64,000 nt of DNA from Chiloscyllium plagiosum. Lineage: Eukaryota. A program made the translations under genes and the position numbers. The notes under the pieces are model-generated. The model saw only the letters and a program-made list of their open reading frames with translations. It did not search any database and had not been told where the DNA came from. Positions 1,246 to 58,269 of this stretch are shown here, one piece after another (the stretch's first letter is position 1; each line of letters opens with the position of its first letter). The stretch lies in contig NC_057718.1 in assembly GCF_004010195.1 (NCBI RefSeq), positions 65,484,287-65,548,286 of the forward strand. The letters are read 5' to 3'.

Positions 1246-2709
1246 TAGTTTAGGAGATAATTCTTTGCCAGAGAATATATGATCCATGGAACAAGTTGAC
1301 ATTTTTTGTTGTAAAACCTAATTTGCTGAATTCCTTCAAGTTTGATCTGGATCTGTCCTTACTAGGGGGAAATTATGACCTCACACAAAATTTAGATCCA
1401 TGAGTAAATTCCTAGTTTTGATCACCTAAATGCGTCCAAAAGGAATTTTCCAAATTTCAAACTCACACTAACTGGCATACTTTATTTTTGATGTTTGCAC
1501 ACCAAGAGATAGTTTTGTGACAATGGGTTGCTTTCCATTTATTAATGTCCCTAACAGCAGTGCTACAGAAAAAAGATAAGGTCAAAAGTCCCACAACACT
1601 AGGTTATAGTCCTGGCTATAACAGGTTTATTTGAAATCATAAGCTTTCCTAATGCTGCCCTTTTGTCAGGTGAAGAGAGCATAATGGCACAGAACTTATA
1701 ATCAGAGAGATCAAACATTCATACAACTGGTCTGAGTGGAGTGTCAACAGGCTGAATAATAGGACTCTGCAGAGGACCAAGAGTGTCAGATGGTGTGAGT
1801 AAAATGTCAACAGCTGAATAACAAGTGAAAGGATGCGCATACACATTATCTGCACAGATGAGGAGGAATGCTATGGTCACCTAAAGATGCTGAAAGAGGC
1901 TCTCATAAGAATGGGATATGATGTTCAACCCACTGATTGCCAGTTCCAATGTGCCACAGCAAAAAACCTCAACAACTTCCTCAGAAGACAGACACAGGAT
2001 ACGACCGATAGAGTACCCTCCATCTTCTAGTACTTTGCTGGTGTGCAGAAACTGTGCCATGTTCTTCACAGCCTTCAACATGTCATTGATGATGACAAAC
2101 ATCTCGCCAAGATCATCCCTACATCTCCAGTTCTTGCCTTCAAATAACCGCCAAACCTTAAACAGACCATCGTTTGCAGCAAACCACACATCCATCAGGA
2201 CATTGACCACAACACCACACACCCTGCCATGGCAACATCTGCAAGACATGCCAGATCTTCAACATGGATACTACCATCACATGTGGGAACACCACCCACC
2301 ATGTACACAGCAGATACTATGTGACTCAGCCAATGTTGTCTACCTCATACCCTGCAGGCAAGGATGCCGCAAGGCATGGTATATTGGCAAGGCCGTGCAG
2401 ACACTAAGACAACAGATGAATGGACACCGCACAATGATCACTAGACAGGAATGTTCCCTTCCAGTTGGTCAAGGACATTCACCCTCCGATCTTCCGGTAA
2501 GTGTCCTCCAAGGCGGCCTTTGAGATCCACAACAATGCAGAATTGCCGAGCAGAAACTGATGGCCAAGTTCTATACGCATGAATTTGGTCTCAACCATGT
2601 TCTTGGGTTCACGTTGCGCTATGTGAACCCACCATACTGTTCTGTAAACTCTTCCTTACTGAGCTGTTTTGACACCATCACCTTGATAGCTTGTTATGAT
2701 CTGAAGAGA

Positions 2710-2948
2710 GCCTTCCCACCTATCCGCTCCAAGCTTCCCACTGACCAATCACAGCCACCTCCAACCTGCATGCACCTATAACCAATCCACCCCCTTTTCT
2801 CCCAAACTCACCCCTTCCATTTATTTTGTAGCCCCCTTCCCCTCCCCCAGTCCTGTTGAAAGGTTATGACCTGAAATGTTCACTACCCTCCTCCTCTGAT
2901 TATGCTTGACCTGCTGTGCTTTTTTCCAGCTCCACTGTTTATCCAACT
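2710..2948 (+). mobile_element. PLE family B 3' fragment nested in the family A element
   Basis: Similar to 45200-45440; decayed HHR CTGTTGAAAGGTTATGACCTGAAATGTT at ~2853-2880. Confidence 0.65.
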
Positions 2949-3364
2949 TGGTGTGATGTCTCTATCTAATTAGTTTGTACAGTTTTGGATTACTTGTTAC
3001 TTTGGTTAGACCCTCCGTATGCACCTCTTATACCAACCATATCATTCCAGCCATTTGGCCTGTCTCCAGCACCACCTTATTTTGAATTCTTTGTAAATAT
3101 CTTTTTGCCTCAATTAATCGGATTATAGAGCATTCCTTCACTTGTTATTCAGTTATTGACGCTTTACTCACACCGGTTGACAGTCTTGATCATCTGCAGA
3201 GACCTATTACTCAGCCTGTTGACACTCCACTCACACTATTTGCATGGTCTTTTGATCTCTCTGATTATAAATGCTGTGCCTGTGTGCTTCTCTTCCCTTC
3301 ACCTGATGAAGGGGCAGCCCTCCTAAAGCTTATGATTTCAAATAACCCTGTTGGACTAAAACCT

Positions 3365-3558
3365 AAAAATCACACAACACCAGGTTATAGTCCAACAGGT
3401 TTAATTGGAAGCACACTAGCTTTTGGAGCGTTGCTCCTTCATCAGGTGCGACGCTCCAAAAGCTAGTGCTTTCAATTAAACCTGTTGGACTATAACCTGG
3501 TGTTGTGTGATTTTTAACTTTGTACACCCCAGTCCAACACCGACATCTCCAAATCAGA
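3365..3558. mobile_element. Non-coding fold-back PLE family A mini-element inserted into the pLTR of the older element
   Basis: Inverted arms ~3365-3432 / ~3450-3516, ~40-nt tail to 3556; TSD ACTAAAA(C/T)CT at 3355-3364 and 3559-3568; near identical to 6003-6222. Confidence 0.88.
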
Positions 3559-3649
3559 ACTAAAATCTGGTGTTGTGTGACTTTTGAGTTGGCCCATCCC
3601 AGTCCAACAACGGCACCTCCACATCATGTAAATAAGGTAAAACTGTTCG

Positions 3650-3860
3650 TTCGCTCAGTTGGTTGGTGGATGCTGGTTTGCAATGCAGTATGATGTGAAC
3701 AGCATGGGTTCCAATTCTTTTTTGACTGAGGTTAGCAATGAAGGACTTTTCTCAACCTGTACCCTCACCTGCGGACCATCAGGTCAAACCACCACCGTCT
3801 CTCTCTCTCTCTCTCTGATACAGCAACTTCCTGTATTGTCCTACAGCGACTTTAGCTCTG
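3650..3860 (+). mobile_element. Degenerate tRNA-like SINE with (CT)n; related copy at ~37490-37700
   Basis: GCTCAGTTGG A-box-like and GGTTCCAATTC B-box-like motifs; shares GCTGGTTT..ATGCAG..AACAGCATGGGTT with 37490-37560. Confidence 0.55.
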
Positions 3861-4149
3861 CATAAATACAAATTTCTTTTTGTCAGAATTATTTCAAGCT
3901 TTTGATTTGAACCATAAAAGATCCACTATCACCATGTTGCAGTTTCTCCTTTTACTTAGCCTATAAAATTGTTTTGATCTAGTCTTTAACACTAACCTGT
4001 TGAAGCTAGAATACGCGTTAAGAAAGATTTACCGTTGTTTTCGGTTGTATCAATAGGTCCCACTGTGAAGTTCTATCTCTGTGTTGTGAATAATGTATAC
4101 TCATTGTAAATACACACAAAAGACATTCAAATTGATCTCTCCACTACCC

Positions 4150-5660
4150 CTTTAAATGAACTACCGCTCGGAGCTTGGCTTTGGTTTTTGGTCCGGACTT
4201 TATAAAAAGTAGGAACATCAACGCGAGATCCCCCTTCTTTTTTTTCTCTCTTGTAAAGTTATTGACGCATAAAGACAACAGGAATTTGTTTTCACGTCTG
4301 GCGCGCTCTTAAAGTCGGCATATACAAATAATAATAATCATCATAATAAGCAAAGCACGCTGGGTGGAGTGGTCCCTTCCCTTTAAGGAGTTTCGACGGA
4401 AGTGGTGGCGAATGCAACCTGATCCCTTGGTGAAATGCAGAGGTCCTGGAGCGGGAGGTTGTGTTTGCAGATACACACAGGAGGTGGAAAGCGGCCCGGA
4501 GCTGAGCCCAGCGCAAACAGCATGTGAGCACGGGAACACCGCAACAGTAATAGGGGCACTGAGTATCACCTCCACACACACACAGATACATCTGGATACA
4601 AACTTTCTATAATCTTCCCAACCTCTCAAACCAATGGAACCTATCACCAAGTGGACGCCGAAACAAGTGGTGGAGTGGATTAAAGGTAAATAACTTTGTG
4701 CTGTTTGTAACGGCGCACTTGACAACTCCTGGAGTGGCGGTCAGTCAGTATCTTACAACTTAAAGCAACATTGTTCTTCTGAGTCATTTCAAAAACTGAT
4801 GTGATTATGTGGAGCAGAGTTCGGATTCAACGAAACCTTAGTTTGGTGTTGTGGCTCCATTCAGGACTTGGATTTTTCTTCATTTTAATTATTAGTTCGG
4901 TGGGTTTCGTTTCCTTTCTCACGAGTGTTTATATAATTTAATTGCTACTTTTGTTGGAAAACCAAATGTATTTTCTTTGCCCCCGAACTTTAACTTGCTC
5001 GCCTCACCTTCTGTGGCTGTGGGGAAGGGGGAAAAAAAGTATCCCTGGTTGTCTGTGAATTAGGTTTTTTTCTTATCTGCCGGTGGTTGACCGACAACTC
5101 ACTGGCTCGGGAATCTCCCGGGGATCCCGGTTACTGCCGCTCTCGTTTGCAGGATGTCGGCGGCCTCTGCTGCAGTCCGGGCTCCGAGCACTGTTCGGTT
5201 TTCAGCGCTGTCACCGCTGTTTGAGCCGAACATTGAAGAATATCCAACCGATCCAACTTCTCCCGGTGGACCAGTTCACTTCGGCTGAAAGCGATGGGAC
5301 GTGCCCGCGAACTCTTTTTTTTAAAGTAAAGCTTTCAAATGTCAGAGTTTCTGTTCGACGTCGTTCGACAGAGCTCAATATTTATTTTAAAGGTTTTTTA
5401 AAACAAAAACAGTTCATATTCCATTGGAATACCAACTGGGGAAGGACAGAGGTGCTGAGTCAGCTAGTTTCTGACTGGAAAGGAAGCGGCCGCTTCTATT
5501 CGACTTTTGGCGAGGATTCGCCGTGCATCCAGTGTTTACTGTAAACTGGAGACTAATGCAAATATGTGGGCGCCCTCCTGGGATCGGGCTTGTTAACATG
5601 GTCTTGGTGAATAGTTCATTGAAATTTGGTGTTTGGCCTCGCACGTGATTGATGGCCATT
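4150..5660 (+). promoter_or_regulatory. CpG-rich promoter / 5' UTR / first-intron region of CNKSR3
   Basis: Visibly many CpGs compared with the CpG-depleted remainder; surrounds exon 1; TATAAAA at 4201, TGACGCA at 4263, ETS-like CGGAAGTG at 4397, CACGTG at 5642. The TSS cannot be determined. Confidence 0.7.
4634..4685 (+). CDS. CNKSR3: CNKSR3 coding exon 1 (start of SAM domain, MEPITKWTPKQVVEWIK/G)
   Basis: ATG at 4634; 52 nt ending AAG|GTAAAT donor (phase 1). Peptide resembles the CNKSR3 N-terminus as recalled (MEPVTKWSPKQVVDWTRG) and lacks the MALI extension of CNKSR2. Confidence 0.93.
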
Positions 5661-6095
5661 TGGGTGAGATGAAGACGCTGGAGCTGTGCTGAAGTGAACC
5701 ATTGCTGAACATTTTTTACAGTTCGGGCTGAAAAATCTCTTTTAGTTCTAATACCAGGAGCATAGAAAGACAGTGCAAAAAAGATGCCACGTAGGGCGAC
5801 TTATGTACAGAATGTGTTCTACCTTCTGGCAGCTTGGGGATTTTTGAGACCATAAAACATAGGAGCACAAGAAGGTCATTCCGTCCATCCAGCCCACTCC
5901 ACCACTCAATGAGATCATTGTTGATCTGATAATCTGTAACTCTCACTTTCCAGCCTTTTCTCCCCATACCCCTTGATTCTCTTAGTGATTTAAAAATATG
6001 GATCATGATTTGGAGATGCCGGTGTTGGACTGGGGTGTACAAAGTTAAAAATCACACAACACCAGGTTATAGTCCAACAGGTTTAATTGGAAGCA

Positions 6096-6130
6096 CACTA
6101 GCTTTCGGAGCGACGCTCCTTCATCAGGTG
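6096..6130 (-). ncRNA. Minimal type I hammerhead ribozyme motif (intact core, antisense copy)
   Basis: Exact reverse complement of 6140-6174. Confidence 0.82.
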
Positions 6131-6139
6131 AAGGACAAT

Positions 6140-6174
6140 CACCTGATGAAGGAGCGTCGCTCCGAAAGCTAGTG
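6140..6174 (+). ncRNA. Minimal type I hammerhead ribozyme motif (intact core)
   Basis: CAC-CUGAUGA-A-GGAGC-GUC-GCUCC-GAA-AG/CU-A^-GUG: stem I CAC/GUG, 5-bp stem II, palindromic AGCU stem III, CUA cleavage triplet. Confidence 0.82.
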
Positions 6175-6232
6175 CTTCCAATTAAACCTGTTGGACTATA
6201 ACCTGGCGTTGTGATTTTTAACTAAAAATATG

Positions 6233-6392
6233 GAGAAAGTGAGGATTGCAGATGCTATAGATCAGAGTCAAGTGCGTGTTGCTGGAAAAGCACAGCAGGT
6301 CAGGTAGCATCTGAGTAGCAGGAGAATTGCTGTTTCGGGCATAAGCCCTTCATCAATCAGATGGACTTTCCTGGTCAGCGTTCCTGACTCTG
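6233..6392 (-). mobile_element. PLE family B 3' fragment, truncated in the HHR core
   Basis: Reverse reads TGATGAAGGGCTTATGCCCGAAAC..GATGCTACCTGACCTGCTGTGCTTTTCCAGC; TTAAAAATATG recurs at 5990-6000 and 6396-6406. Confidence 0.8.
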
Positions 6393-6427
6393 ATTTTAAA
6401 AATATGTCCATTTCCACCTTTTTACAT

Positions 6428-7571
6428 ATAGGTGTTCAACAAGGTTCCCCATGGGAGACTGATTAGCAAGATTTGATCTCATGGAATACAGGGAGAACGA
6501 GCCATTTGGATACAGAACTAGCTCGAAGGACAGAGAGGGTGGTGGTGGATGGTTGTTTTTCAGACTGGAGGGCTATGACTAGTGGTGTGCCCCAAGAATC
6601 GATGCTGGATCTACTACTTTTTAATCAGTTATATAAATGATTTGGATGTGAGCTTTACAGGTATTGTTAGTAAGTTTGCAGATGACCCTAAAATTGAAGG
6701 TGTAGTGGACAGCGAAGGAGATTACCTCAGAATACAATGGGATCTTCATCAGATGGACTGATGAGTGGCAGATGGAGTTTAATTTAGATAAATGTGGGAA
6801 GCTACATTTTGGAAAGGCAAATCAAGGCAGGACTTATACCCTTAATGGTAAGGTCTTGGGGAGTGTTGCTAAACAAAGAGACCTTGGACTGCAGGTTCAT
6901 AGTTCCTTTGAAAGTAGAGTTGCAGGTTGATAGGATAGTGACAAAGGCATTTAGAATGCTTTCCTTTATAGGACTGAGTATTGAGTATAGAAGTTGGGAG
7001 GTCAGTTCAGCTGTACAGGATATTGGTTAGGCCCCTTTTGGAAAATTGTGTCCAATTCTGGTCTCCCTCCCATAGGAAGGATGTTGTGAAACTTGAAAGG
7101 GTTCAGAAAAGTTTTTTACAAGGATGTTACCAGGGTTGGAGGATTTGAGCTATAGGGAGATGTTGGATGGGCTGAGGCTGTTTTCCCGAAGCATTGGACG
7201 CTGAATGGTGACCGTATAGAGATTTATAAAATCATGAGAGGCACAGTTGAGTAAATAGACAGTCTTTTTCCCTGGGGTGGGGGAGTCCAGAACTAGAGGG
7301 TTTAGGGTGAGTGTGGAAAGATTTAAAAGGGATCAAGGGGGCAACTTTTTCATGCAGAGGGGTGGTGCGTGTATGGAATGAGTTACCAGAGGAAGTGGTG
7401 GAGGCTGGTAAAATTGTAACATTTAAAAGGCATCTGGATGGGTATATGAATAGGAATGGTTTAGAGGGATATGGGCCAAGTGCTGGCAAATGGGACTAGA
7501 TTAGGTTAGGATGTCTGGGCAGCATAGACGCATTGGACTGAAGGGTCTTTATCCGTGGTGTGCATCTCTAT
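6428..7571 (+). mobile_element. HER1/CR1 LINE 3' fragment (RT C-terminus and 3' UTR)
   Basis: KFADD, EFNLDKC, VRVWNELPEEVVEAG..FKRHLDGYM motifs with frameshifts. Confidence 0.92.
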
Positions 7572-8599
7572 ACTTAATGACACAATGGCACTCTTCACTG
7601 CAGATTCACCATCACCTTAAATGAGTGACCCTTTTTTTTCTGAGATTATACCCTTGTGGGACCTAGACTCTCCCACAAGGTGAAACAACCACTCTGCATC
7701 TAACCTATCAAGTCCCCTCTTAAGTCTTACATGATTCAGTAAGGTTGCTCTCATTCTCTTCATCGCCATCGATGAGAAGCCTAACCTACTTAGAAAACAA
7801 TTTTTAAAAATGCTGATCGAAAAAGGTTTGTATTTGGTGCTGTCCTCTTTCGTCTTGCATTGATATTCAGCAGCCAAAGTATGTTCACTGTGCACTTATC
7901 TGTTTCTGCAGAAAATACAGTCTAACTGATTACCTGTCCTTTTGAACTTTGACATATTTAGATAGCCTCACTATGTCAGCATATTTCTATCCACCAATAT
8001 TTTTTGGTATTCTATCTTGCATGGACTGTACGGTTTTACGAAGTCGGTCAGATCTGAGGACAACTTCATCCACTGGTAGAATAGACTGACAAGGATAAAC
8101 ATAGAAAATGTGAGGCGGAACATTTGATGGGAAGAAATGGTAGGTCACGTATTACTTGTAAGGTGCAAGTCTTGATGGAGTAGAGGAGCAAAGGGATTTT
8201 GGAGCACAAATTCACCATTCACTGAAAGTAGCACCACTGGTTAAGGTATAAAGCAAACTAAACACCACATTTTATTTACCTATTTACTTAATATTATTTA
8301 TTTAATAATTGAAATGTAGGGCACTTGTATTGAACTTACTGGGGAAAGGCATGACTAGAGGCCATCAGTATAAAATATTTACTGAGAAATTTTAATGGGG
8401 AATTCAGAAGTGACTACAGTGTACAGGTATTTGACAAATGGCAAAACATTGAATTTTACAACTTGTGACCACAGAGTTGTTGAAGTGAATATTGTGTATG
8501 CAATTGAGAGAGAACTGGACAAGCAAACGGAAGGAATAAAAACAATGTGCTTGAAATATTCAGCATGTTCAATGACTTCAGTGGAGAGAAACATAATGG

Positions 8600-8740
8600 T
8601 TCTGGTTGCTGACTGTTCTTTCCATTTCCTGATGAAAGGTCATCAACTTGAAATGTTAACTGTTTCCCTCCAGAGGTGCTGCCTGACTTGAAGGTTTACC
8701 CTTTTTGCTTCAGATTTTCAGCATCTGAAATATTTTTTGC
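8600..8740 (+). mobile_element. Old PLE pLTR fragment with decayed HHR
   Basis: CCTGATGAAAGGTCATCAACTTGAAATGTTAACT..TGCTGCCTGACTTG..CAGCATCTG. Confidence 0.6.
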
Positions 8741-9242
8741 TAAACATTTGAAGGGAATAAGGGTTAACAATAATAGGTTTAAAGTGGTGAGATGAGATTA
8801 AGCATTTGTGGACCGGCACAATAAGAGTCAGCATGAAAATATTGGTCTAATGTCCTGTTTCTGTCTTGTGTATTTCATGAAATATGACAGACCGCTTCAA
8901 ACATAATGTAACAAATATATATAAGAAGGATATTCAGACTTTTCTAATATATCTATTTGTCAAAGTCTTTAGAAGTTTGCAATCTACTGATGCATGATTG
9001 TGTAATAAAATCTGCAAAGAAACTAATCGTTTAAATTTAATTTTTTTTTTAAGAATTAATATCTGTAGGAGCCATTTTCCATTTATGTGTTGCTCAGCTG
9101 TTCTCCTTGATAAGGTGGCCCAGAGAAAGCAAACATAATCCTGCCTCCTCTTAAACCCAATGCCTTCTGCTGCAGCATATGCAGATGCAATTGTCATGCC
9201 GGAGATGGGACTCCTAAGCCACACCAGGCAATTATATTTGGG

Positions 9243-9640
9243 AGGTGAAAGTGGGTACTGCAGATGCTGGAGATTAGAGTAGTGCTGGAAAAGCACAGCA
9301 GATCAGGCAGCATCTGAGGAACAGAAATATAGATGTTTAGGGTAAAAGCCCTTCATCAGGAATGAGGCTGGGACCCTCTGGCTTTGCTAGTGCCAATTAT
9401 TGCATAAATGTTTTGCTAGGGATAGCAGTGTTCTACTTGGAGAATTGTGAAATTTTAGAGCCTGCCAGTGAAAATACAAAGATTTTGCTTAGCGTACTAA
9501 AAGCAAAATGCCACAAATGTTGGAAATTGAACCGAACACTCAAAATGCTGGAGAAACCCAGAAGACCTGTCAGCATCTGTGGAAACTAAAAAAAAAAGTA
9601 AATGATTTGAGTCTGAGATTCTTCTTCAGAACTCAAAATT
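9243..9640 (-). mobile_element. Two PLE pLTR fragments (family B at 9243-9385; family D-like at ~9500-9635)
   Basis: TGCTGGAAAAGCACAGCAGATCAGGCAGCATC..GCCCTTCATCAGGAATG and TGCTGGAGAAAC..CAGCATCTGTGG..TTCTTCAGAACT. Confidence 0.7.
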
Positions 9641-10823: not shown

Positions 10824-10907
10824 GGATGCTGCCTGAATTGCTGTGCTCTTCCAGCACCACTGATCCAGAATCTGGTTTCCAGCATCTGCAGTCATTGTTT
10901 TTACCTT
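10824..10907 (+). mobile_element. 84-bp PLE family B 3' terminal insertion
   Basis: GGATGCTGCCTGAATTGCTGTGCTCTTCCAGCAC..CCAGCATCTGCAGTC; perfect 14-bp TSD TGTGATTTCTTACC at 10810-10823 and 10908-10921. Confidence 0.85.
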
Positions 10908-10966
10908 TGTGATTTCTTACCTGTCTACTACAAAGGACCTCACCAAAAGCCTTGGTAAAATGCAAT

Positions 10967-11970
10967 TTTGGAGAAGATGTGTAGCTGAGGTTGTGGATCA
11001 GATTTAGGTTTGCTTGCTGAGCTGGTAGATTTGTTCTCGGATGTCTCATTACCATGCTAGGTAACATCATCAGTGAGCCTCCAATGAAGCGCTGGTGTTC
11101 TGTCCTGCTTGCTATTTATCTGTCTAGGTCTGTTGGGGTGGGTGATATCACTTCCGGTTCTGTTTCTGAGAGGTTGGTAAATGGGGTGCAAATCGATGTG
11201 TTTGTTAATAGAGTTCCGGTTTGAATGCCAACCTTCTTAAGACTTCCCATGTGTGTCTTTGTTTAGCCTGTCCCAGGATGGATGTATTGTCCCAGTTGAA
11301 TGTGTGTTGTGTGTGAGCCACTGATAGTTGGTCATGTCTTTTCGTGGCTAGTTGGTGCTTGTATATCCTGGTGACTGGTTTCCTGCCCGTCTGTCCAATG
11401 TAATGTTTGTCGCAGTCCTTGCAGGGTCTCTTATATATGACGTTCATTCTGCTCGTTATTAGTTCGGGATCCTTTAGATTCATCAGGAGCTGTTTAAGTG
11501 TGGTGGTACTTTTGTGGGTTACCATGATGCCTAGGGGCCAGACTAGTCTGGTCGTCATCTCTAAGATGTCTTTAGTGTATGGCAGGGTGGCTAGAGTTTC
11601 TGGGTGTGTTGTCATCTTGTTTAGGTCTATGGTGTAGGAATCAGCAGATTATGCTTATTGTGTATCTGTTCCTGAATGCTATACGTTGTATAGGTGTTTT
11701 TCCTTGGCTTCTTTTAGTTCCTGGGTGCTGCAGTGTGTTGTGGCTCATTTTAAATAATGTCCTGATGCATCTCTGTTTGTGGGTGTTGGGATGATTGCTC
11801 CTGTATTTGAGTATCTGGTTTCCTGTGAACTCTGGTCTGTAGCTGTCCACTGGCTTTGCGTTCTACCGTGACGTCTAGGAAAGGGAGTCTTGTTGTTCGC
11901 TTCCTCTTTGGTGAACTTTATACCGGTAAGGATGTTGCTTGTGTTTGTGACACCTTTTTTGTTATCACGA
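10967..11970 (-). mobile_element. Penelope-like element (family C-related), RT C-terminus, GIY-YIG and pLTR
   Basis: ORFs 11641-11850 (YRSNHPNTHK) and 11205-11615 (NVIYKRPCKDCDKHYIGQTGR); decayed HHR at 11036-11077. Confidence 0.92.
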
Positions 11971-12575: not shown

Positions 12576-12937
12576 TGAAGTTAAAAATCTTGCAATACCA
12601 GGTTATAGTCCAACAGGTTTATTTGGAGGCAATAGCTTTCCAGGCACAGCTTCTTCAGGTGGTTGTGAAGCAGGACCATAAGACCCAGAATTTATAGCAA
12701 CAGATTAGTTTCGTGCAGTTGAAATGATATCTAGGTTTGTTCAATATAATCATTTCCCCTACTTGAGACTGTAATCTTTTGCTATAAATTCTGTGTCTTA
12801 AGGTCCTGCTTCACAACCACCTGATGAAGAAGCAGTGCCTCGAAAGCTAGTGCCTCCAAATAAACCTGTTGGACGATAACTTGAAGTTGTGATTTTTAAC
12901 TTTGTCTATCTCAGTCCAACACCGGCATCTCCAAATC
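12576..12937. mobile_element. Fold-back PLE family A mini-element (longer arms)
   Basis: Inverted arms ~12578-12730 / ~12745-12902 plus tail; TSD CATTTCCTGAT at 12565-12575 and 12938-12948. Confidence 0.88.
12818..12852 (+). ncRNA. Minimal hammerhead motif (core intact, one stem II mismatch)
   Basis: CAC-CTGATGA-A-GAAGC-AGT-GCCTC-GAAAGCTA-GTG. Confidence 0.7.
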
Positions 12938-22914: not shown

Positions 22915-23060
22915 AATGCAAGTTTGTTCGCTGAGCTGGAAGGTTCGTTTTCAGACGATTCATCACCATACTAGGTAACATCATCGGTGAAGCACTGGAC
23001 TAAGTATTTGTGATTAGGTTTCCTTAGGTGGTTGATGTCATTTCCTGTGGTGATGCTATT
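22915..23060 (-). mobile_element. PLE family C-related pLTR fragment with decayed HHR
   Basis: Matches 11008-11150; reverse TTCA-CCGATGA-T-GTTACC-TAGTAT-GGTGAT-GAATCGTC-TGAA. Confidence 0.75.
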
Positions 23061-42400: not shown

Positions 42401-42854
42401 CACACTAATGTGAAAGCCTATAAGAGTACCTATCTAATAATCTATTTTAACATGTATTTTGTGGTTTTAAGGGCTGACGAGGCATTAATCCGATGAAAGA
42501 ACTATGCATACTAGGCTCCAAAGTTAAAAATAATTTTTCAGTTTACAGTGCATGAAGTTTATTTTCAGCATGTCTGGATTTCCTATGGAGCTAAAACTGT
42601 CTTTATGTGCCTTTTTGGTTTGTGTTTTTGAATGTGGATTGAAATGGGGAAAGAAGGATTTTAAAACCAAGGATTCCTGAAGGAGAACTCCATGTTTTGA
42701 AAGCAAGTAACCTGATCTCTATTGTAAGTACCGTTTACCCAGCTTCTGGTTCAAGCAATCGTAGGAAAACGTATAGATGAGCTGGATGCATACAAATGGA
42801 GAGTCAGTTGGCAACAGGTAATTGATTGGTCGGTGAACTAGTGACCAGTTTTCG

Positions 42855-43930
42855 ATGACAAACTTTGACAAGACAGCCTCTGAAATGTCCACCTTCTTCC
42901 ACAACAAAGGATTCCCCAACACCGTTGTCAACAAGGCCCTCAACTGGATCGAGCCATGACGTGCATTTCTGCCCTCGCACCCTCTCCTCTCTCCCACAAC
43001 AGCAATAGAGTTCCCCATGTCCTTACCTACCATCCCAGCAGCATCCACATCCAGAGGATCATCAGCCACCATTTCTGCCATCTCCAGTGACATGCCTCCA
43101 CCGGACACACATTCCCCTCCCCGTATTTGTCAGCAGGGACCCTCTGGAACACCCTGGTCCACTCTTGCTTCACTCTGAACCCTCCCCAACCCCCCACCCC
43201 CCATTTACCACCTCCTCCTTCAATATCCAAGGCCCCAAACATACCTTCCAGCTGAAGCAGCATTTTACCTACACCTTTCACAATCTAGTTTACTGCATTT
43301 GCTGCTCAGTGTGATCTCCTCTAGGTTGGGGAAATGAAGCTTAGACTGGGTGACTGCTTCACAGAAGTTTACATTCTGTCTGCAAAAAAGACCTTGAGCT
43401 TCCAGTTCCCTGCTACTTCAATGGACCATCCTGTTCCCTGGCCAACATCTGTGTCTCTGGTTTGCTGCAGTGCTTCAGCGAAGCTCAGTGCAAGTTGGAA
43501 GCACAACACCTCATTTTCCGCTTGGGGACCCTGCAGCCCTCTGGATTCTATCGAGTTCAATAATTTTAGAACATGGAAATGTCCCATGTCCTCGCCACCT
43601 ACCCCACACACACTGCCTTGTTATCACAGTCTGCGATTAAACATTATCTTTTGTTAACTAGTAATAGTCTCCATTAACAGCTATCCGAAGCAATCCTAGC
43701 CAAAGCGTTATTAACTCCTTTATCGGTCCAACTGCTTTTCTCTCTCTTTGGGTTCTATTCCCACCTATTGTTTACTCCTTATCACCTCTCCCCACCTCTC
43801 CTCTGCATATAAACCAACATTTTCCATCATTTCTGAAGAAGGATCACTGGACCCAAAACATTAACTCTAATTTCTCTTCAGATGCTGCCAGACCTTCTGA
43901 GCTTTTCCAGCAACTTCTGTTTTTTGTTTC
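42855..43930 (+). mobile_element. Penelope-like element (family D), decayed ORF with GIY-YIG and pLTR
   Basis: FFHNKGFP..LTYHP..HFTYTFHNLVYCICC motifs; decayed HHR CTGAAGAAGGATCACTGGACCCAAAACATT at ~43833-43862. Confidence 0.85.
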
Positions 43931-44597
43931 TATGACGACAAAGGTTTTCTACCAGCCAACAACAATGATTGGTGTTCTTGTAGCTGAACAGTTTTGGGGC
44001 TGTGAGCAAGATGGGGAGAAGTCAGCTCCTGGGCTGGTGGAGACAAGATGTCTGTGGTCTCTTCAGTAAAAGCGGCTTTAATTCTGAAGAAGAACAATTT
44101 ATTTTCTAGTTACTGTCAACTGTGACTTTTAATACACCAGAGATTTATTTTACATATAACTGAACATGCCGCCCTGTACTTCCTGCAAACCAGTCATAGC
44201 ATCTGGAGAAGAAAGACATGAGAAGTAGCATTCTGACCAACAGAAGAACCATCTCCAGCAGATCCTGCAACATTCGACTGCTTTCCCAGTATTTCCCTTC
44301 ATCCACACAATCTATTTTTCCCCTTTCTTTCTTTCTGTTTGTTTGTATGTATTATATATTGACAGTTCAAAATTATTGTAGCTAGCAACTAGTTATTTGT
44401 AATAAATATTAATTATGATGTACAGCAACCTTTCCATGCTTTCTGTCAAACTGGGCCTGAAAGACAGTTAAAGTGAGGAATTTCACATACTTTAAAAAAT
44501 CATTAATTTTTGTGATGGCTCCTGGAATAGCAGGACTAGATTTTCAGTGGGCTATCCCCAGTGAGGTATGGTGGTGATTCGTGAGGCTTTAACAACT

Positions 44598-45470
44598 TCA
44601 GAGTTGAAAAGGGAAGCAGGTCAGGCAGCATCCAAGGAGGAGGAGAGTCGATGTTTTGGACATAATCCCTTCATCAGGAATGTTGGGGAGGGGGGAAAAG
44701 GGGCTGAAAGATAAATGGGAGGGTGGGAGTAGGGTAGCTGCAAAGGCAATAGGTAGATGCAGATGGGGGGTGATTTGTGATAGGTTGGTGGGCAAGGTAG
44801 AATGGACAGGTGGGAAGGAAAGTGAACAAGTTGGGTGGATGGGTTGGAGGGTTGGATCTGGAATGAGGTGGTTGGAGGGGAGATTTGGAAATGGATGAAG
44901 TCGATTATTGATGCAGTGTGATTGAGCACTAAGCAACCCCACCATTCTGTGGCCGACGACTTCAACTCCCCCTTCCACTCCGCCAAGGACATGTAAGTCC
45001 TGTGCCGCCTCCAACACCAAATCCAAGTCACCCAACGAGTGGTGGAAGAACGCCTCATCTTCAGCCTTGAGGCTCTTCAGTCACATGGCATCAACATCGA
45101 TTTCACCAGTTTCCAAATCTCCCCTCCATCACCTCATCCCAGATCCAATCCTCCAACTCGGCACCACCCTCTTCAACTGTCCTACCTGTCTATCTTCCTT
45201 CCCACATATCTGCTCCACCCTTCCCTCCAAACTATTATCATCATCCCCCACCTGCATCTACCTGTCACCTTCCAACCTATCTCCCCAGCTCCCCACTCCT
45301 ATTAATCTCTCAGCCCCCTTTTCCAACCCACCTCCTACTTTCCTGGTGAAGGACGTACGCCCAAAACGTCAACTGTCCTGCTCCTCGAATGCTGCCTGAC
45401 CTGCTGTGAGTTTTCCAGCACCACCCTTTTCGATTCTGATCTCCAGCATCAGCGGTCCCCACTTTCTCCT
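44598..45470. mobile_element. Fold-back PLE family B element
   Basis: 44598-44915 (-) is inverted against ~45090-45440 (+); middle encodes EERLIFSLEALQSHGINIDF (PLE C-terminus); decayed HHR in each arm. Confidence 0.85.
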
Positions 45471-45519
45471 TTCAACAAATGTGATGCCCTTTATTGTTTG
45501 GCTATTCAGTCCATTGTTT

Positions 45520-46996: not shown

Positions 46997-48054
46997 TCAC
47001 CGTTTTTATTCGCTGCCCCACAATTCAGAACTAAAAGATAGTTTTGCTGATATGAATGTGCTTTGACCTTCACAGAATCATCATGGTGATAGCATCCACC
47101 ATTCAGCTTGACAAGCATACAGTGGCTCTCCAATGGAACACTTTATCTAATGCCACTCGCTGTAGCTCTGCACATGCAATGTTTCAGATGGTAATCTAAT
47201 TCCTCCTTTAAATAATCAATTGAATCTATTTACTTCTACCACACTCTGGCACTCCATCCTAAATCCCAAATGCTCCTTGCATGAAACATTTTTTCTTTGT
47301 CTCCATTGTTTTTGCCATTTTGGTTAAAACTGTGCCCTGACTGATTCTGCAAACCATGCTGTTGATGCTCCTGTAGCTAACTATCATGTCTGTATGAATC
47401 TTATGTAAAAATTGTTGAATAGATGAACAGGTTTCTTGCTCTCTATACAGCGGATGTGGAGGGCGAGAATGTAGACTAGGAGAGGGAGCACTGCTTTAAA
47501 AGTAAAGGATCATCTATTTCGGACAAATGAATTCCTTTTTCCAATGAGAAGCATCGGAAGCAGAAGCTCTGCATGTTTTTAAAGAGGTGATTGCTGTAAG
47601 TAAGGGCATGGAAAGGTAATCAGGTGTAGACAAATTTTGGGCTACAAACAGATCAGCCATGATGTTCTTAAATGGCAGAGCAGGCACAAGGGGCCAAACT
47701 GCCAATTCCTGCTCCTGTCAACATAGGGGTCAACTCCTGCTCCTATCAACATCGGGTCAAGTGCAATTTGCCTTTCGTGGGTGAAGTATGCCTGAAAGAG
47801 TAGTGTAAGATGAGGGATTCCCTTTAACAAGGTGGCTGTACTGGGATGGGAACCTTGTCCTATCGGGGATAAATAGGGTAGTCAGAAAGACTGAACTTAC
47901 AAATTGTTAGAATTGTTGGGTTGATGGCAGAAATGAAGAACTTGGACAAAAAGGTAATATAGATAATAGTTCAAACAATTCAAAGTTTGGGTGAAGATTT
48001 GTAGCTCAGGTGCTCGTTATTGTGGTTCTGTTCGCCGAGCTGGAAATGTTTGTT

Positions 48055-48094
48055 GCAAACGTTTCGTCCCCTGTCTAGGTGACATCCTCAGTGC
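48055..48094 (-). ncRNA. Minimal type I hammerhead ribozyme motif (intact)
   Basis: GCA-CUGAGGA-U-GUC(ACCUAGACAGGG)GAC-GAA-AC/GU-U^-UGC; palindromic ACGU stem III. Confidence 0.82.
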
Positions 48095-49346
48095 TTGGGA
48101 GCCTCCTGTGAAGCGCTTCTGTGGTGTTTCCTCCGGCATTTATAGTGGCCTGTCCCTGCCGCTTCCGGTTGTCAGTTTCAGCTGTCCGCTGTAGTGGCCG
48201 GTATATTGGGTCCAGGTCGATGTGTTTGTTGATGGAGTTTGTGGATGAGTGCCATGCTTCTAGGAATTCCCTGGCTGTTCTCTGTTTGGCTTGTCCTATA
48301 ATGGTAGTGTTGTCCCAGTCGAATTCATGTTGCTTGTCGTTTGCGTGTGTGGCTACGATCAGCTATCCTTAGTAAACGCCACGACCAGCTATCCTTAGCC
48401 ACTCACGCAGACGACGAGCAACATGAATTCGACTGAGACAACACTACCATTATAGGGCAAGCCAAACAAAGAACAGCCAGGGAATTCCTAGAAGCATGGC
48501 ACTCATCCACAAACTCCATCAACAAACACATCGACCTGGACCCAATATACCGGCCACTACAGCGGACAGCTGAAATATACAGGAAAGCCACACACACACA
48601 CCAAGTCCAGAATTATGAAAGCAACCACCCCAACACACACAAACGAAGTTGCATCAAGACACTATTCAAAAGGGCCACAACACACTGCAGTACACCAGAA
48701 CTGCAAAAAGAGGAAGAGGAACACCTGTACAAGGTATTCGCCAAAAACGGATACCCGCGCAATTTCATCAACAGATGCCTAAGAGAAAGACAACGGAACG
48801 AGGACATGCCACAACCCAAAGGACTAGCCACACTACCATACATCAGGAGCATTTCAGAACTGACAGCCAGATTACTGCGATCACTAGGACTTATAACAGC
48901 ACACAAACCAACAGCTACTCTCAGACAACAACTCACCAGAACGAAGGACCCGATACCCAGCATGAGCAAAACTAATGTAGTGTACAAAGTCCCATGCAAG
49001 GACTGCACAAAACACTATAGGTCAAACAGGAAGACAGCTAATGATCCGCATCCATGAACATCAACTAGCCACGAAACGCCACGACCAGCCACACACGCAG
49101 ACGACAAGCAACATGAATTCGACTGGGACAACACTACCATTATAGGGCAAGCCAAACAAAGAACAGCCAGGGAATTCCTAGAAGCATAGCACTCATCCAC
49201 AAACTCCATCAACAAACACATCGACCTGGACCCAATATACCGGCCACTACAGCGGACAGCTGAAACTGACAACCGGAAGCGGCAGGGACAGGCCACTATA
49301 AATGCCGGAGGAAACACCACAGAAGCGCTTCACAGGAGGCTCCCAA

Positions 49347-49386
49347 GCACTGAGGATGTCACCTAGACAGGGGACAAAACGTTTGC
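49347..49386 (+). ncRNA. Hammerhead motif with G12>A substitution (predicted inactive)
   Basis: Identical to the reverse complement of 48055-48094 except GACAAAAC instead of GACGAAAC at 49376. Confidence 0.75.
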
Positions 49387-49566
49387 AACAAAACTTTCCA
49401 GCTCGGCGAACACAACCACAACAGTTCAAACAATAAAGGTATTTGAGCATTTTAAAATTGTGCTTTATGTGCAACAGATGGAGGCAACTAACAGTAGTTT
49501 AATGTAATTAAACTAGGAGAGAAAAATAAGATGAACAGAGTAAAATTTAGAGCAAAAGTACATGTT

Positions 49567-49865: not shown

Positions 49866-49965
49866 AGTTGTGGAGATGTGCCCTAAATAAACTTGCTGTA
49901 TCAGGAACAAGGTAAATGAACTGTGCGCTCAAATGCAACATGTGGGGAATAAGATGGTAGACATT

Positions 49966-50540: not shown

Positions 50541-50590
50541 CTCTGTGACACACGTTAGCAAAGTGAATTAAACTAGGAGCTTAACACACT

Positions 50591-51300
50591 AGTCATAGAT
50601 ATGTACAGCACGGAAACAGAATGCACAGTCCAATTCATCCAGATATCCTAATCTAGTCCCATTTACCAGCATTTGGCCCATATCCCTCCTAAACCCTGTT
50701 CACATACCCATGCAAACACCTTTTTAAATGCTGTAATTGTACCAGCCTCCATCATTTTCTCTGACAGCCTATTCCATACACTGAACACCCTCTGTCTGAA
50801 AAAGTTGCCCCTTGGGTACCTTTTTATATCTTTTCCCTCTCGCCCTAAACCTTTGCCGCCTTGTTCTGGACTCCCCCACCCCCAGGGAGAAGACTTTACC
50901 TATTTATCCTACCCATGCCCCACATGATTTCATAAACTTCTATCGGGTCACCCCTCAGCCTCTGACACTCCAGGGAAAACAGCCCCAACCTATTCAACCT
51001 GTCCCTTTTTAGCTCTAATCCTCTAACCCTAGCAACAGCCTTTACTCAGCCCTTTCAAGTTTCACAAAATCCTTCTGATAGGAGGGAGACCAGAATTGCA
51101 TGCATTATGCCAAAAGTGGCCTAACCAATGCCCTGTACAGCTGCAACATGACCTCCCAACTCCTGTACTCTTTACTCTGACCAATAAAGGAAAGCATACT
51201 GCCTTCGCTATCCTATTTTCCTGCAACTCTATTTTCAAGGATCTATGAACCTGCACTCCAATGTCTTTTTGTTTGGCAGCATTCCCCAGGACTTTATCAA
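50591..51300 (-). mobile_element. HER1/CR1 LINE 3' fragment, tail-to-tail with the preceding copy
   Basis: Starts AGTCATAGATATGTACAGCACGGAAAC; same region as 34241-34980. Confidence 0.9.
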
Positions 51301-52789
51301 ACTCCTATTGACATTTGCCTTTGTGTATATGTCAGCTGATATGTAGCATTGCAATTTTGATGGGAACTTTTAATTTTTTTTATTTGTGGTTTGCAACGCG
51401 TCTGAATACATGCCTTGAAAGGGATGAATTTGCTGTGTCTGGAAGATTTTCTGCAGCAACACATCCTCGAGCCAAATTTAGTCAATAGCTGAATGGAGCA
51501 GGAACATTTACCTGATAATTATAAGGATATGATTAAACAAGACAATTGACCTGCCTCCGTCTTGTTCTGTGTACTTTCCTTTATTTGCTGGGTTGATCTT
51601 TCTGCCTTCCATTTGTTTCTGCATGTTGCATTTGAATAGTGTGAATTAAGTAATTCACATTAAGCAATTTGCACCTGACTTGGGCACAACCCTTGTTTCT
51701 TCACTGCCCATACTAATGTTTAGCTGTTTCATTGTGAAAACTTCTGTTATTTTAATTTACCCTGGCCTCTACTTTGGCACATTTTCTACTTTTGTTCTTT
51801 TTGTGCTCTCTCCTCCACTACTGCCTTAAATCTTGAATTTGTATTTCTGTTCATTTCTGATGAAAGACCATTAATCTGAACTCTGCAGAGAAACAGATTC
51901 TAGTTGATCTGAATTTTCCCACCCTTTAGTTGTTTGGAAGCAGGAAGCATGAAACAATGACTAAGATTCCTGATTTAAGTAAAGCTAACTTTGGTGGGAT
52001 GAAAGAAGTCCTGTCTGCAGTAAAGTGGGCAACACTTACTGGTAGTGATGTTAAATAATGGGAAGTGTTCTAAAGAAAATTTTAGTATTAGTAAAAATTC
52101 ACTACCCTTGAGTGCAAACACCTGTCAAAAAGATAGCCACAGCAAGTCAGAATAAAACTTCAAATTACAACTGTAGAAATGCAACAGCACAGATACTCAA
52201 AGATACAAAGAATTGCCAAGGTGACAAAATAAATTCAGCTCCACAAAGAGATTTGCACTGAATATTGGAATTATTATACCCAAATGGAATACTCCTCTTT
52301 TCATGGAGAGAACTGGAATTCCAGTGGAGGTAAAATGTCATGCTTCAATAGTACAAAACTCTGGTTAACACCTACATCAGGTATTCAGAGCACTGCTGAG
52401 CACTACACCTTAAAACGGATGTATTGGCCTTAAATGGAGTGCAACATTTATTTAGCCAAATGATGCCTAGATTGCTAGGGTTAAATTGAGAAGGCAAAGT
52501 TGGTTGTAGATAAGATAAAGAGGTAAATTGACTCAATCTTGCAGAATATTAAGGGGAGCAGAACAGAGAATTTGGGACAAAGTCTTTCTGTTGGTTAAGG
52601 AGTCTTGAACTACAGCATACTGTCTGAGGACTAGAACCAAGCCTTTCAAGAGTAAAGTTAAGAAATACAATTGCACACAGAACCTTTTCACGTATCGAAC
52701 ACCCTTCCAGTAATGGCAGGATCTAAAAGTTGAAGTTCTGAATTGGAGGAAGGCTAATTTTGACTGTATTAGGCAAGAGCTTTCAAAAG

Positions 52790-52952
52790 GAGAAAGTGAG
52801 GGCTGCAGATGCTAAAGATCAGAGTCAAGAGTGTGGTGCTGGAAAAGCGCAGCAGGTCAGGCAGCATCCAAGGAGCAGGAGAAAAGATGTTTCAGGCATA
52901 AACCTCATGAAGGGCTTATGTCTGAAATGTCAATTCTCCTGCTCCTTGATGT
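52790..52952. mobile_element. Fold-back PLE family B mini-insertion in the CR1
   Basis: CATCCAAGGAGCAGGAGAA..(center)..TTCTCCTGCTCCTTGATG; TSD AAGA(G/A)CTTTCAAAAG at 52775-52789 and 52953-52967. Confidence 0.88.
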
Positions 52953-53746
52953 AAGAACTTTCAAAAGTTAATTGGGGGCAGATGTTCACAGATAAAGGAA
53001 CGGCTATAAAATGGGAAGCCTTCAGAAATGAGATAACGAGCATCCCCAGAGACAGTATATTCTTGTTTGGGTGAAAGGAGAGGCTGGTAGGTGCAGGGAA
53101 TGCTGGATGACCAGAGATGTTAGGTTTTAGTCAAGGAAAAGAAGGAAGCATATATCAGGTATAGACAGGATAGATTGAGTGAATCTTTAGAGTGTAAAGG
53201 CAGTAGGATTATACTGAAGAGGGAAATCAGGAGGGCAAAAAGGGGACATGAGATAGCTTTGGCAAATAGGGTTAAGGAGAATCCAAAGAGATTTTATAAA
53301 CACATTTTAAGGACAAGAGGGCAACTATGGGTAGAATAGGGTCCCTCAAAGATCAGTAAGGCAGCCTATGTGTGGAGCCACAGGAGATGGGGGAGATACG
53401 AAACTAGTATTTTGTATCCATGTTTACTGAGCAAGATATAGAATGTGGAGAAATAGATGGTGACATCTTGAAAAATGTCCATATTACAGAGGAGGATGTG
53501 CTGGATGTCTTGAAATGCATAGACATGGATAAATCCCCAGGACCTGATCAGATGTACACTAGAACTCTGGGAAGCTAACGAAGTGACTGCTGGGTCCCTT
53601 GCTGAGATAGTTGTATCATCGATAGTCACAGATGAGGTGCCAGAAAACTGAAGGTTAGCTAACATGGTGCCATTATTTAAGAAAGATGTTAAAGAAAAGC
53701 CAGGGAACTATAGACAGGTGAGCCTGATGTCAGTGGTGGACAAGTA

Positions 53747-55802: not shown

Positions 55803-56420
55803 TTTTGTTGGTCAGAGTATTGAGTACATGAGTTGGGAGGTCATGTTGCGGCTGTACAGGACTTTGGTTAGGCCACTGTTGGAATATTGCAAGCAATTCT
55901 GGTCTCCTTCCTATCGGAAGGATGTTGTGAAACTTGAAAGGGCTCAGAAAAGATTTACGAGGATGTTGCCAGGGTTGGAGGATTTGAGCTATAGGGAGAG
56001 GCTGAACAGGCTGGGGCTGTTTTCCCTGGTACGTCGGAGGCTGAGGGGTGACCTCTATAGGGGTTTACAAAATTGAGGGGCATGGATAGGGTAAATAGGA
56101 AAAGTCTTTTCCCTGGGGTCGGGTAGTCCAGAACTAGAGGGCATAGGTTTAGGGTGAGAGGGGAAAGATCTAAAAGAGACCTAAGGGGCAACTTTTTCAT
56201 GCAGAGTGTGGTATGAGTATGGGATGAGCTGCCAGAGGAAGTGGTGGAGGCTAGTACAATTGCAGCATTTAAGAGGGATTTGGATGGGTATATGAATGGG
56301 AAGGGTTTGGAGGGATATGGGCTGGCAGGTGGGGCTAGATAGGGTCGAGCTACCTGGTCGGCGTGGACGAGTTGGACTGAAGGGTTTGTTTCCATGCTGT
56401 ACATCTCTATGATTCTATGA
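55803..56420 (+). mobile_element. Young HER1/CR1 LINE 3' fragment
   Basis: ORF 55789-56076; tail CATCTCTATGATTCTATGACT. Confidence 0.93.
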
Positions 56421-56702
56421 CTTCCTTGCTTCTATATTCAGTGTCCTGGCTAATGAAGTGCATCTTCTTGTATGATCCCTTCACTCTGGTTAATTGTGCT
56501 GATACCTTCAGGGATCTATGGACTTGTACACCAAGGTCCCTCTGTTCCTCAGTACTTCCTCGGGACCTACACTTCATTGTGTATATCTTTCCTTTATTAG
56601 ATGTCCCAAAATGCATCACTCCTCTCTTATCCGGATTAAATTCAATCTGACATTGCTTTGCCCAATTTACCAGCTGTTCAATATCTGACTGGAGCCTGAG
56701 AC

Positions 56703-57139
56703 TCAAAGAACTGTGGATGTAGGAAATGAGAAACAAAAACAAATTAGTGGAAAGTTCCAGCAGGTCTGGCAGCATCTGTGAAGAGATGTCTAAGTTTACA
56801 TTTCAGGTTGAGTTACACTTCCTCAGAACTCTAGGTATGAACACCTTTGAAGTGCTGCTCCTCTCTCTGACCGGATTTCTCTTCCAATCATTTTCCTTGT
56901 CCACCGTCCTTAATTTCATTATTGTTCCTGGTGTTCAACCAAGGTATTTGATAAAACTCTCTTCCACAGCCCATATTGCATTCCTCAGTTATTGTCTCCA
57001 CCTCAGATTCATCCCATATAGTTTACAACTTCAGTTTCACAAAGTTCTGAGGAAGTCAGTTGACCTGAAACATTAACTCTGATTTTTCAACATAGCTGCT
57101 GCCAGATCTGCTGAGTTTTTCTATCAATTTTATTTTTGT
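56703..57139. mobile_element. Fold-back PLE family D insertion
   Basis: 56730-56830 is inverted against 57043-57139; perfect TSD AGCCTGAGAC at 56693-56702 and 57140-57149; decayed HHR CTGAGGAAGTCAGTTGACCTGAAACATT. Confidence 0.85.
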
Positions 57140-58269
57140 AGCCTGAGACCATTCTCTTCACTCCACTTCAGTTTTCATGCCATCTGCCAACTTATAATTA
57201 CACTTTCCACATTCAAATTCCTGGAATTCCAATCTGCAAGGAATTGTGGGTCAACCTACAGCGTGTGGACTGCAGTGGTTCAAGAAGGCAGCTCACCACC
57301 ATCACCACCTTAAGGCACCTAAGGACAGGCAGTAAATGCTGGCCAGCCAATACTGACCATCCTGATCAATTCCTTTCCAAGCATTGATGAATTCTTCTTT
57401 GAGAAATTTTTCCAATAATTTCCCTACCATTGACGTCAGACTAGGTAGTCTGTGTAATTACCTGGCCTGTCCCTGTTTTCTTTTTTGAACAAAGGATGAA
57501 TGACCCCTAGACTGCTAACTGTTTTGATCCTGTTAGCCGTGATCTTAACCAGGCTCAGGAGGTGGCTAACCAGGAGTGGTCTTGTGTTTCTACATACTTG
57601 ATTCCAATTATGAACATGCATCACTGTGTTTCCTTTTTTTTAAGTTGTATACTTCGAGGAAATGTTGCTGGAGCCTTTGCTTTTGAACTGGGGTCATTTT
57701 ATATTTCTCATTCAAGGTCTCTGTATTGATTGAGGTTAATTATAATTTGTTTTCAGGGCCAAGCACTTGTTGAGACAGTTTTTTTTTTCTTGCCATTTTT
57801 TTTTTCTCTTTTAGGTGCTGAATATTAACAGGTATATCAACAGCACTCCAGTACTTTTCCCAGATGGTCATTTAACTTGTCACAAGTGCCCAACATTGAA
57901 TACCTGTTGGATGATTTGTGTAGCCATCACAGTCACTTGATCCTGAGTATTCACTTGCACACCTTTCAATGTTCTGCTGGCATGTGATGGAAATTGAAAA
58001 TGTTACATTGCTTTGCCTACCTTCTGGCCTTTTTCTAGTTCAAAGGAGTCCTACTTGACCTACTTTTACTGCTTCAGCTGCTTATCACTTTTTATATTGC
58101 TTATTGTGAAATATAGTTTGCCCATGCTTCTGTGAAGCATCTATGTTTGACTGTTAAAGTTGCTCTACAAATACAAGTTGTTGCTTGTTTATGTCCATGT
58201 CATTAAACTGTTTTGAAAACTGAGCTTTGCATCATCAAGTCAGCATGAATCATGTACTTTTGAAGGTAA

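Follow-up and report, generated by a model that had tools for sequence, protein, structure and literature searches.

Paired short and tailed arms in truncated Penelope-like insertions within a 64-kb window of a shark genome

Introduction

Some retroelement insertions carry two outward-facing 3' ends, which raises the question of how both come to be laid down at one target. We followed this question in a 64,000-nt stretch of the shark Chiloscyllium plagiosum (NCBI RefSeq assembly GCF_004010195.1, contig NC_057718.1, positions 65,484,287 to 65,548,286, forward strand; hereafter the window, numbered from its first letter), which contains Penelope-like elements (PLEs) of several families, designated here A, B, C and E. 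The original prediction for this DNA held that each insertion has two oppositely oriented 3' ends, one arm stopping earlier than the other, and that the offset reflects two priming events. The window is AT-rich vertebrate DNA crowded with pieces of a long interspersed nuclear element (LINE) that, from its peptide motifs, we take to be CR1-like.

Results

Each two-armed insertion joins one short and one tailed arm

The eight loci named in the original prediction are dead, 5'-truncated Penelope-like copies, each made of two back-to-back end pieces. All eight are present where expected (Table 1), as an oppositely oriented pair of arms lying head-to-head with their 3' ends outward. In 8/8, exactly one arm bears a tail and the other is tail-free. 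Tails measure 35-41 nt in family A, about 42-44 nt in an A-related composite element at 1583-3631, 39-40 nt in family C, 31 nt in family B and 29 nt in family E (56703), in agreement with the proposal that one arm is about 40 nt longer in families A and C. The short arm of family A had been expected to end at ..GATTTTTAAC; two of three arms do so, at ..GATTTTTAAC(T), and the third, in the copy at 3365, is 2-3 nt shorter.

A census of the window, using BLAST and profiles made from the window's own arms, yielded 18 Penelope-like insertions. These comprise nine two-armed copies (the eight above and a decayed one at 8538-8742), one doubtful copy at 6232-6396, whose 41-nt second piece ends with a 10-nt match to the family B short end, and eight single-armed copies. 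Four of the single arms are tailed, three end at the short site and one is too decayed to call. The statement that each insertion has two opposed 3' ends is thus correct for the eight chosen loci but does not extend to the whole window, where 8/18 insertions are single-armed. The decayed two-armed copy gave shuffle p values of 0.003-0.004 against two other arms, 0/1000 against a third and 0.34 against a fourth. The single arms at 9243 and 10824 face each other; a reading of the two as one insertion was rejected because 10824 carries its own target-site duplication (TSD).

One short and one long arm were found in all nine clear two-armed copies, with none having two tails and none lacking a tail. 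Were each arm free to use either site at 50:50, eight one-tailed copies out of eight would have a probability of 0.004; the eight loci behind this figure are those of the original prediction, and the census turned up no contrary pair. In the same nine copies the arms belong to one family, or to related E-type families, and are joined head-to-head. Arms are mostly tiny (45-850 nt), and divergence between the arms of an insertion ranges from 1% to 26%.

Table 1. Penelope-like insertions and their parts in the window (RT, reverse transcriptase; pLTR, pseudo-long terminal repeat)
Feature	Coordinates	Arms or strand	TSD (left / right; match; p)	Remarks
Composite fold-back, A-related, predicted Neptune/Nematis-type linker	1583..3631	short 1583-1840 (-); tailed 1824-3631 (+)	1576-1582 / 3632-3638; 7 exact, or 10/11 when overlapping the arm end; 0.007	two nested insertions inside; tailed arm with RT thumb and GIY-YIG remains
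Nested B-like single arm	2703..2946	+	decayed, not significant	ends near short site
Family A fold-back	3365..3557	short 3365-3448 (-); tailed 3449-3557 (+)	3354-3364 / 3558-3568; 7 exact, full 9/11; 0.02	nested in composite pLTR
Family A fold-back	6003..6222	tailed 6003-6136 (-); short 6139-6222 (+)	5991-6002 / 6223-6234; 12/12; 0.0007	hammerhead core on both arms
Family B copy	6232..6396	tailed 6232-6355 (-); then 41 nt, doubtful second arm	6223-6232 / 6397-6406; 10/10	left TSD is landing site of 6003 copy
Ninth fold-back, E-related	8538..8742	short 8538-8606 (-); tailed 8622-8742 (+)	none recoverable	decayed
Single-armed, B-type	9243..9362	-	not significant	tailed
Single-armed, E-related	9500..9633	-	borderline; 0.06	tailed
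Single-armed, B-type	10824..10907	+	10810-10823 / 10908-10921; perfect, 14 bp	tailed
Single-armed, C-related	10963..11951	-	not significant	tailed; thumb and GIY-YIG remains
Family A fold-back, older	12576..12937	short 12578-12728 (-); tailed 12749-12937 (+)	12565-12575 / 12938-12948; 11/11; 0.0013	
Single-armed, C-related	22915..23055	-		ends at short site
Single-armed, E	42850..43932	+		ends near short site
Family B fold-back	44598..45470	short 44598-44925 (-); tailed ~44930-45470 (+)	candidate; 8/10; 0.18 (not significant)	internal deletion near end of short arm
Family C copy, young, predicted Penelope/Poseidon-type	47980..49422	tailed 47980-48356 (-); short 48576-49422 (+)	47968-47979 / 49423-49434; 12/12; 0.0007	
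Family C tail	47980..48019	-		encodes residues 42-54 of database protein P0009
Family C internal segment	48358-48575	sense		third segment, between the arms
E-related arm, very decayed	51852-51922			profile E value 0.16; shuffle p 0.001 against one arm
Family B fold-back	52790..52952	tailed 52790-52908 (-); short 52909-52952 (+)	52775-52789 / 52953-52967; 14/15; 0.0007	within CR1 open reading frame
Family E fold-back	56703..57139	tailed 56703-56830 (-); short 57041-57139 (+)	56693-56702 / 57140-57149; 10/10; 0.002	within CR1 RT
Filler of 56703 copy, 210 nt	56831-57040			no second copy within the window

Short duplications flank most two-armed copies

Flanking direct repeats were searched for and scored against 1500 random position pairs. 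The TSDs are 7-15 bp long, mostly 10-14 bp, within the range originally given; this range is backed by significant scores at six of the eight loci (p 0.0007-0.007) and a borderline one at 3365, but not at 44598. Against 272 swapped-flank pairs, the six best TSDs had p values of 0.007-0.015. The host LINE's reading frame further backs two duplications: the flank to the left of the 52790 copy ends ..RQELSK and its right-hand counterpart resumes ELSKVNW.., and at 56703 both flanks form a consecutive CR1 RT peptide. High arm divergence alongside near-perfect TSDs among old copies might suggest that the arms were unlike from the start; this reading was rejected because TSDs are chosen for their likeness and palindromes decay faster.

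The same ends recur in reads and in contigs of relatives

The region 1500-6430 was compared with two raw-read runs carrying the same species label and with contigs of two relatives; the comparison lists the best 6 loose ends per run (7106 more exist) and 15 of 3341 joints. Read depth is ~15,700 over family A against ~0.5 in unique DNA, which puts the number of arms in the genome in the tens of thousands. Among the loose ends listed, the family A long end is sharp: in one relative it falls at 6003/6005/6006 (556/814/465 contigs) and in the other at 6003/6005 (660/926 contigs). The flanks beyond it are AT-rich and mutually unlike (agreement 0.35-0.36). The family B long end at 6232 accounts for 10,705 and 10,482 reads, again among the loose ends listed, and 4 of the 15 joints listed (6 and 30 contigs, 1 read) depart from family A at 3519-3521, its short end. 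The ends are thus discrete beyond the window.

Other comparisons bear on individual copies. The composite's right end also occurs in the relative X5, and a joint between 2702 and 2967 (48 and 62 reads, 16 and 13 contigs) confirms a further insertion nested in this element. No insertion is spanned, as an empty orthologous site, by any contig listed. A 23-nt family A pattern had 0 matches in metagenome, viral and genome contigs. The 17 metagenome loci matching a 20-nt family B pattern were discarded as chance, none matching beyond 30 nt. Contig junctions that place A beside B recur; they were set aside as a sign of enrichment, a rough hand estimate from copy numbers giving a similar chance count.

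Both ends lie within the start of the open reading frame

In family C, translation of the pLTR and tail gives the N-terminus of database protein P0009, the pLTR overlapping the start of the open reading frame (ORF). The match to the tailed arm covers residues 1-54 of P0009 and reaches the final base of that arm; for the short arm it covers residues 1-41 only. Because this N-terminus spans the tail and runs on into the RT, both ends are internal to the ORF start and are not RNA termini.

Protein matches indicate what kind of element this is. Proteins of Chiloscyllium punctatum and Hemiscyllium ocellatum (RVT_1 + PF26215) share 91-92% identity with the coding fragment of family C, and an alignment with P0001 covers the thumb and endonuclease of family C to its end; the composite matches P0010 (E value 2e-94). 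Judged from these matches, the elements appear to be endonuclease-bearing (EN+) PLEs, with an RT plus a GIY-YIG endonuclease at the C-terminus in one ORF. Peptides corresponding to the EN+ feature, as defined in PMC8557442, were recognized in family C (VVYKVPCKDC), a C-related copy (VIYKRPCKDCDKHYIG) and the composite (VVYLIPCRQGCRKAWYIG), and the GIY-YIG domain of family C has two inner cysteines. An inverted 5'-truncated partner, an optional 30-40 bp tail and a short, variable TSD, also EN+ traits, are present as well. The family C linker and P0001 are without a CX2-5CxxC finger, the Penelope/Poseidon layout, and by this domain layout family C is classed as Penelope/Poseidon-type. The composite has a linker finger of the form CX4CxxC upstream of the GIY-YIG domain (PCHGNICKTC at 2222-2251, identical in P0010), which assigns it to the Neptune or Nematis type by predicted layout.

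The remaining coding sequence is poor. No copy in the window has an intact ORF, and the RT core is absent or broken in all; Pfam by itself gave a weak GIY-YIG match (E value 0.027) in one of nine fragments. The short family A copies are tied to the composite solely via 72-83% pLTR identity. In families B and E, broken frames resemble the endonuclease C-terminus by eye and gave no Pfam match and no tblastn match with four proteins; their assignment as putative PLEs rests on the hammerhead, the tail and the architecture. A script search found a hammerhead core and stem II (CUGAnGA / stem II / GAAA) in arms of families A, B and C and in C-related and E-related arms. Most of these predicted ribozymes are decayed, and an Rfam scan returned nine matches, all below the gathering score, with no hammerhead among them.

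Annotated shark MAP3K7 and septin 5a isoforms (P0007, P0011) contain pieces of these retroelement ORFs, probably through misannotation or exonisation.

The two arms of family A copies differ at family-wide dimorphisms

In each of the copies at 6003 and 3365, a single substitution in 65-84 nt separates the two arms, which nevertheless are unlike at a 2-nt indel. This indel is dimorphic in reads, where the two nucleotides are left out in 4172/19,852 and 1155/2845 (X19; X20 is similar), and the longer allele belongs to the tailed arm in the 6003 copy but to the short arm in the 3365 copy. A second dimorphic indel (392/3382 reads) differs within 6003 and within 12576. The arms of all three family A fold-backs are therefore discordant at one or both indels. 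A copy made by snapping back on the first arm should match its template, which these arms do not, and the discordance favors two separate passes over RNA. The 2-nt dimorphism (6094, 3412) lies immediately 3' of the hammerhead cut site predicted from the core motif. An apparent difference in the sequence upstream in the two 6003 arms was dropped from consideration, as it amounts to 2 nt only.

Junctions between arms are varied. About 2 nt are shared at 6003, a 6-nt palindrome is found at the hammerhead core in 52790, ~20 nt are unmatched at 12576 and the filler occupies 210 nt at 56703. In the family C copy, a 218-nt third segment begins with short templated repeats, forms a 189-nt hairpin together with the tailed arm and shares three variants with the far arm and one with the near arm. 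This variety would fit repair-type joining. Many arms start 0-10 nt upstream of the hammerhead core (3448, 6136/6139, 6355, 9633, 52908 and 56830), which suggests a preferred cDNA stop at the 5' edge of the ribozyme. In reads, family B fold-backs turn at or just beyond 6355 (126 and 171 reads).

Discussion

Probable double priming at two internal RNA sites

The anatomy of the insertions, their TSDs, the positions of their ends, the placement of the tail within the ORF and the allele differences between arms are established by this analysis. We think it probable (roughly 0.7) that they arose when an endonuclease-bearing PLE made a double nick 10-14 bp apart and laid down one copy per nick from two fixed internal RNA sites. 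In such a process, the element protein would nick both target strands, and each nick would prime one DNA copy on the element RNA. Two start sites would lie 29-44 nt apart near the ORF start, the nearer one enclosed by a stem-loop that has its 3' strand within the tail. Starting at the near site would give the short arm from one nick and starting at the far site the tailed arm from the other, probably through a dimer. The copies would be separate passes over RNA, probably over two molecules. Their free cDNA ends would lie at differing positions, many of them a little upstream of the hammerhead core, and host end-joining could then connect them, now and then adding filler or templated pieces. 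Where a lone copy survived, a single arm, tailed or tail-free, would remain.

Most of this mechanism has already been described. Two-strand nicking and extension and two internal start sites are in print for a lizard element: PMC11167929 reports that the lizard Poseidon protein cleaves and extends both target strands in vitro, that its RT initiates internally at two sites with the tail being the sequence between them, and that a dimer is predicted. The earlier inference of two priming events at two defined internal RNA sites, one per nicked strand, fits the anatomy and matches much of what that text demonstrates in vitro; it is right but not new. In the lizard element (PAc; Poseidon, Anolis carolinensis), an AC-rich stem-loop encloses the near site. 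In predicted folds of most shark arms of families A, B and C, the short end likewise lies inside a stem-loop, with the 3' strand in the tail.

Several observations weigh against this account. PMC11167929 saw no start-site difference between strands in vitro, a result from which the one-short/one-long rule would not follow. Eight of 18 insertions are one-armed, and the perfect 14-bp TSD of the one at 10824 shows that an insertion can do without a second lasting copy. End positions are not uniform: besides the 3365 arm described above, the short arm at 52790 stops 44 nt before reaching the short-arm endpoint seen in the other family B copy (44598). The strongest family B loose end listed, 6276 (40,551 reads, agreement 0.48), is a blend of short ends and other subfamilies, and family A short ends are visible through the joints listed and not as a genome-wide count. 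The allele argument comprises three insertions and slip-prone TG-repeat indels. Stem-loop folding is weak (z below -2 in 2/9 arms), and in a near-site stem with 62/70 cells paired across eight B and E arms, covariation was not above that of shuffles. Finally, self-priming would be expected to give palindromic or hairpin junctions such as those at 52790 and 48176-48575.

A stricter form of double priming is more tentative, and we would place it somewhat below even odds. It holds that an obligately asymmetric dimer would carry two RNAs, one engaged at the near site and one at the far site, so that each two-armed insertion would be a mosaic of two transcripts and the rule would be common to Poseidon- and Neptune-type families.

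Other possible routes to two arms

The alternative that survives best, though we consider it unlikely, is self-priming, in which the cDNA (or, in a proposal for rotifer Penelope elements, antisense RNA) folds back and is copied, and the second arm is cut or stopped at a fixed site recognized by the endonuclease, so that one side keeps the tail. Snap-back copying was proposed in PMC3846280 and the tail was interpreted as endonuclease resolution in PMC8557442. It yields one tail per insertion with no extra rule and would account for the palindromic junction at 52790 and the internal hairpin of the family C copy. It does not predict that 3/3 family A fold-backs have arms unlike at dimorphic indels. 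Nor does it predict that the family C internal segment should have three variants in common with the far arm and one with the arm from which it was supposedly copied, or that three lone arms should end at the short site without a partner. In addition, both start sites appear in vitro as points of RT initiation.

Slightly less probable still is twin priming on one partial-tandem RNA, where the two nicks prime on its two pLTRs, one of which runs on into the ORF (the tail) while the other stops at the short site. Active PLEs exist as partial tandems, and this arrangement would account for both the single tail and the allele differences between arms. It would also tie an allele to the tail, and the opposite arrangements at 6003 and 3365 show no such fixed link, unless several source copies differ. 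Moreover, a template that has a single pLTR-ORF junction supports initiation at both start sites in vitro.

It is very improbable that the pairs represent separate insertions into one favored AT-rich site, or a later rearrangement: nesting is real in this DNA (3365 in the composite pLTR, 6003 in the 6232 TSD), but a single outer TSD encloses both arms in 6-7 of 8 copies with none between them, which largely rules out independent co-insertion, and in 9/9 the arms are of the same or a related family, head-to-head, with exactly one tail.

Comparison with known elements

The architecture itself is already known, as the original prediction recognized in noting that inverted pLTRs occur in PLEs; PMC3846280, PMC8557442 and PMC8969392 bear this out. 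In the Adineta elements Pen2a, Pen2 and Pen3a, PMC3846280 describes an inverted pLTR, an optional 31-bp tail in the first ORF codons and TSDs of 8-10 bp, and PMC8969392 treats inverted pLTRs with short extensions as routine. The insertion unit of canonical EN+ PLEs thus shares with the shark copies an inverted 5'-truncated copy beside the pLTR, a 30-40 bp tail that is often one-ended, a pLTR and tail over the first ORF codons, and palindromes at some junctions. Canonical TSDs are 8-10 bp, those of the shark copies slightly longer. Unlike in accounts of canonical elements, the shark arms are usually tiny, and one tail per insertion is found throughout the nine. According to PMC4209133, hammerhead pairs on opposite strands, 100-700 bp apart, occur in metazoan PLE pLTRs; the minimal motifs given there match the shark arm cores, which are mostly decayed.

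PAc resembles the shark elements in having a hammerhead at the ORF start, a tail between two internal ends, an AT-rich target and use of both strands, and its near site is AC-rich, as in shark family C. Unlike in PAc, the pattern is also seen in a shark family with a predicted Neptune/Nematis linker, whose near site is U-rich. The paper on PAc (PMC11167929) maps no two-armed product and ties no start site to a strand. In the openly readable literature we found neither a strict pairing rule nor arms from two templates described, and the available portions of PMC9977147, PMC3681739 and bioRxiv 10.64898/2026.07.22.740005 contributed nothing further.

LINE-1 twin priming also involves two nicks, two priming events and an inversion inside one TSD. 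There, each piece is copied from a different part of one RNA, and there is a poly(A) end. The shark arms differ in that both copy the same 3' region and stop at fixed internal sites.

The small additions made here are the one-short/one-long arrangement in 9/9 clear two-armed copies, a family C tail that corresponds to codons 42-54 of the element's own ORF, and family A insertions whose two arms are unlike at 2-nt indels that are dimorphic among thousands of reads. These could matter for second-strand synthesis and the one-sided tail in the Penelope cycle: a strict one-short/one-long rule together with arms from different templates would separate double priming on two RNAs from self-priming. 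If the asymmetric two-RNA reading is true, the shark genome, with its tens of thousands of copies, would preserve a fossil archive against which the rule could be checked.

Nesting and neighboring sequences

Family A copies are nested inside the terminal repeat of a related element (3354-3568) and inside the TSD of a family B copy (5991-6406), the latter leaving three copies of one 10-nt target. The family B copy at 6232 presumably sits in a CR1 3' end. Elsewhere, two CR1-like 3' fragments lie tail to tail at 49969-51299, forming a 1.2-kb inverted repeat of 70% identity. An ATG-led exon at 4625-4687 ends in GT, translates as MEPITKWTPKQVVEWIK and has GC-rich surroundings with a promoter-like look; we take it to resemble the first exon of a CNKSR-family gene. 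A family of short interspersed nuclear elements, which we assume to be tRNA-headed from its appearance, is present in four copies (1-216, 834-1139, 35438-35523 and 49565-49865).

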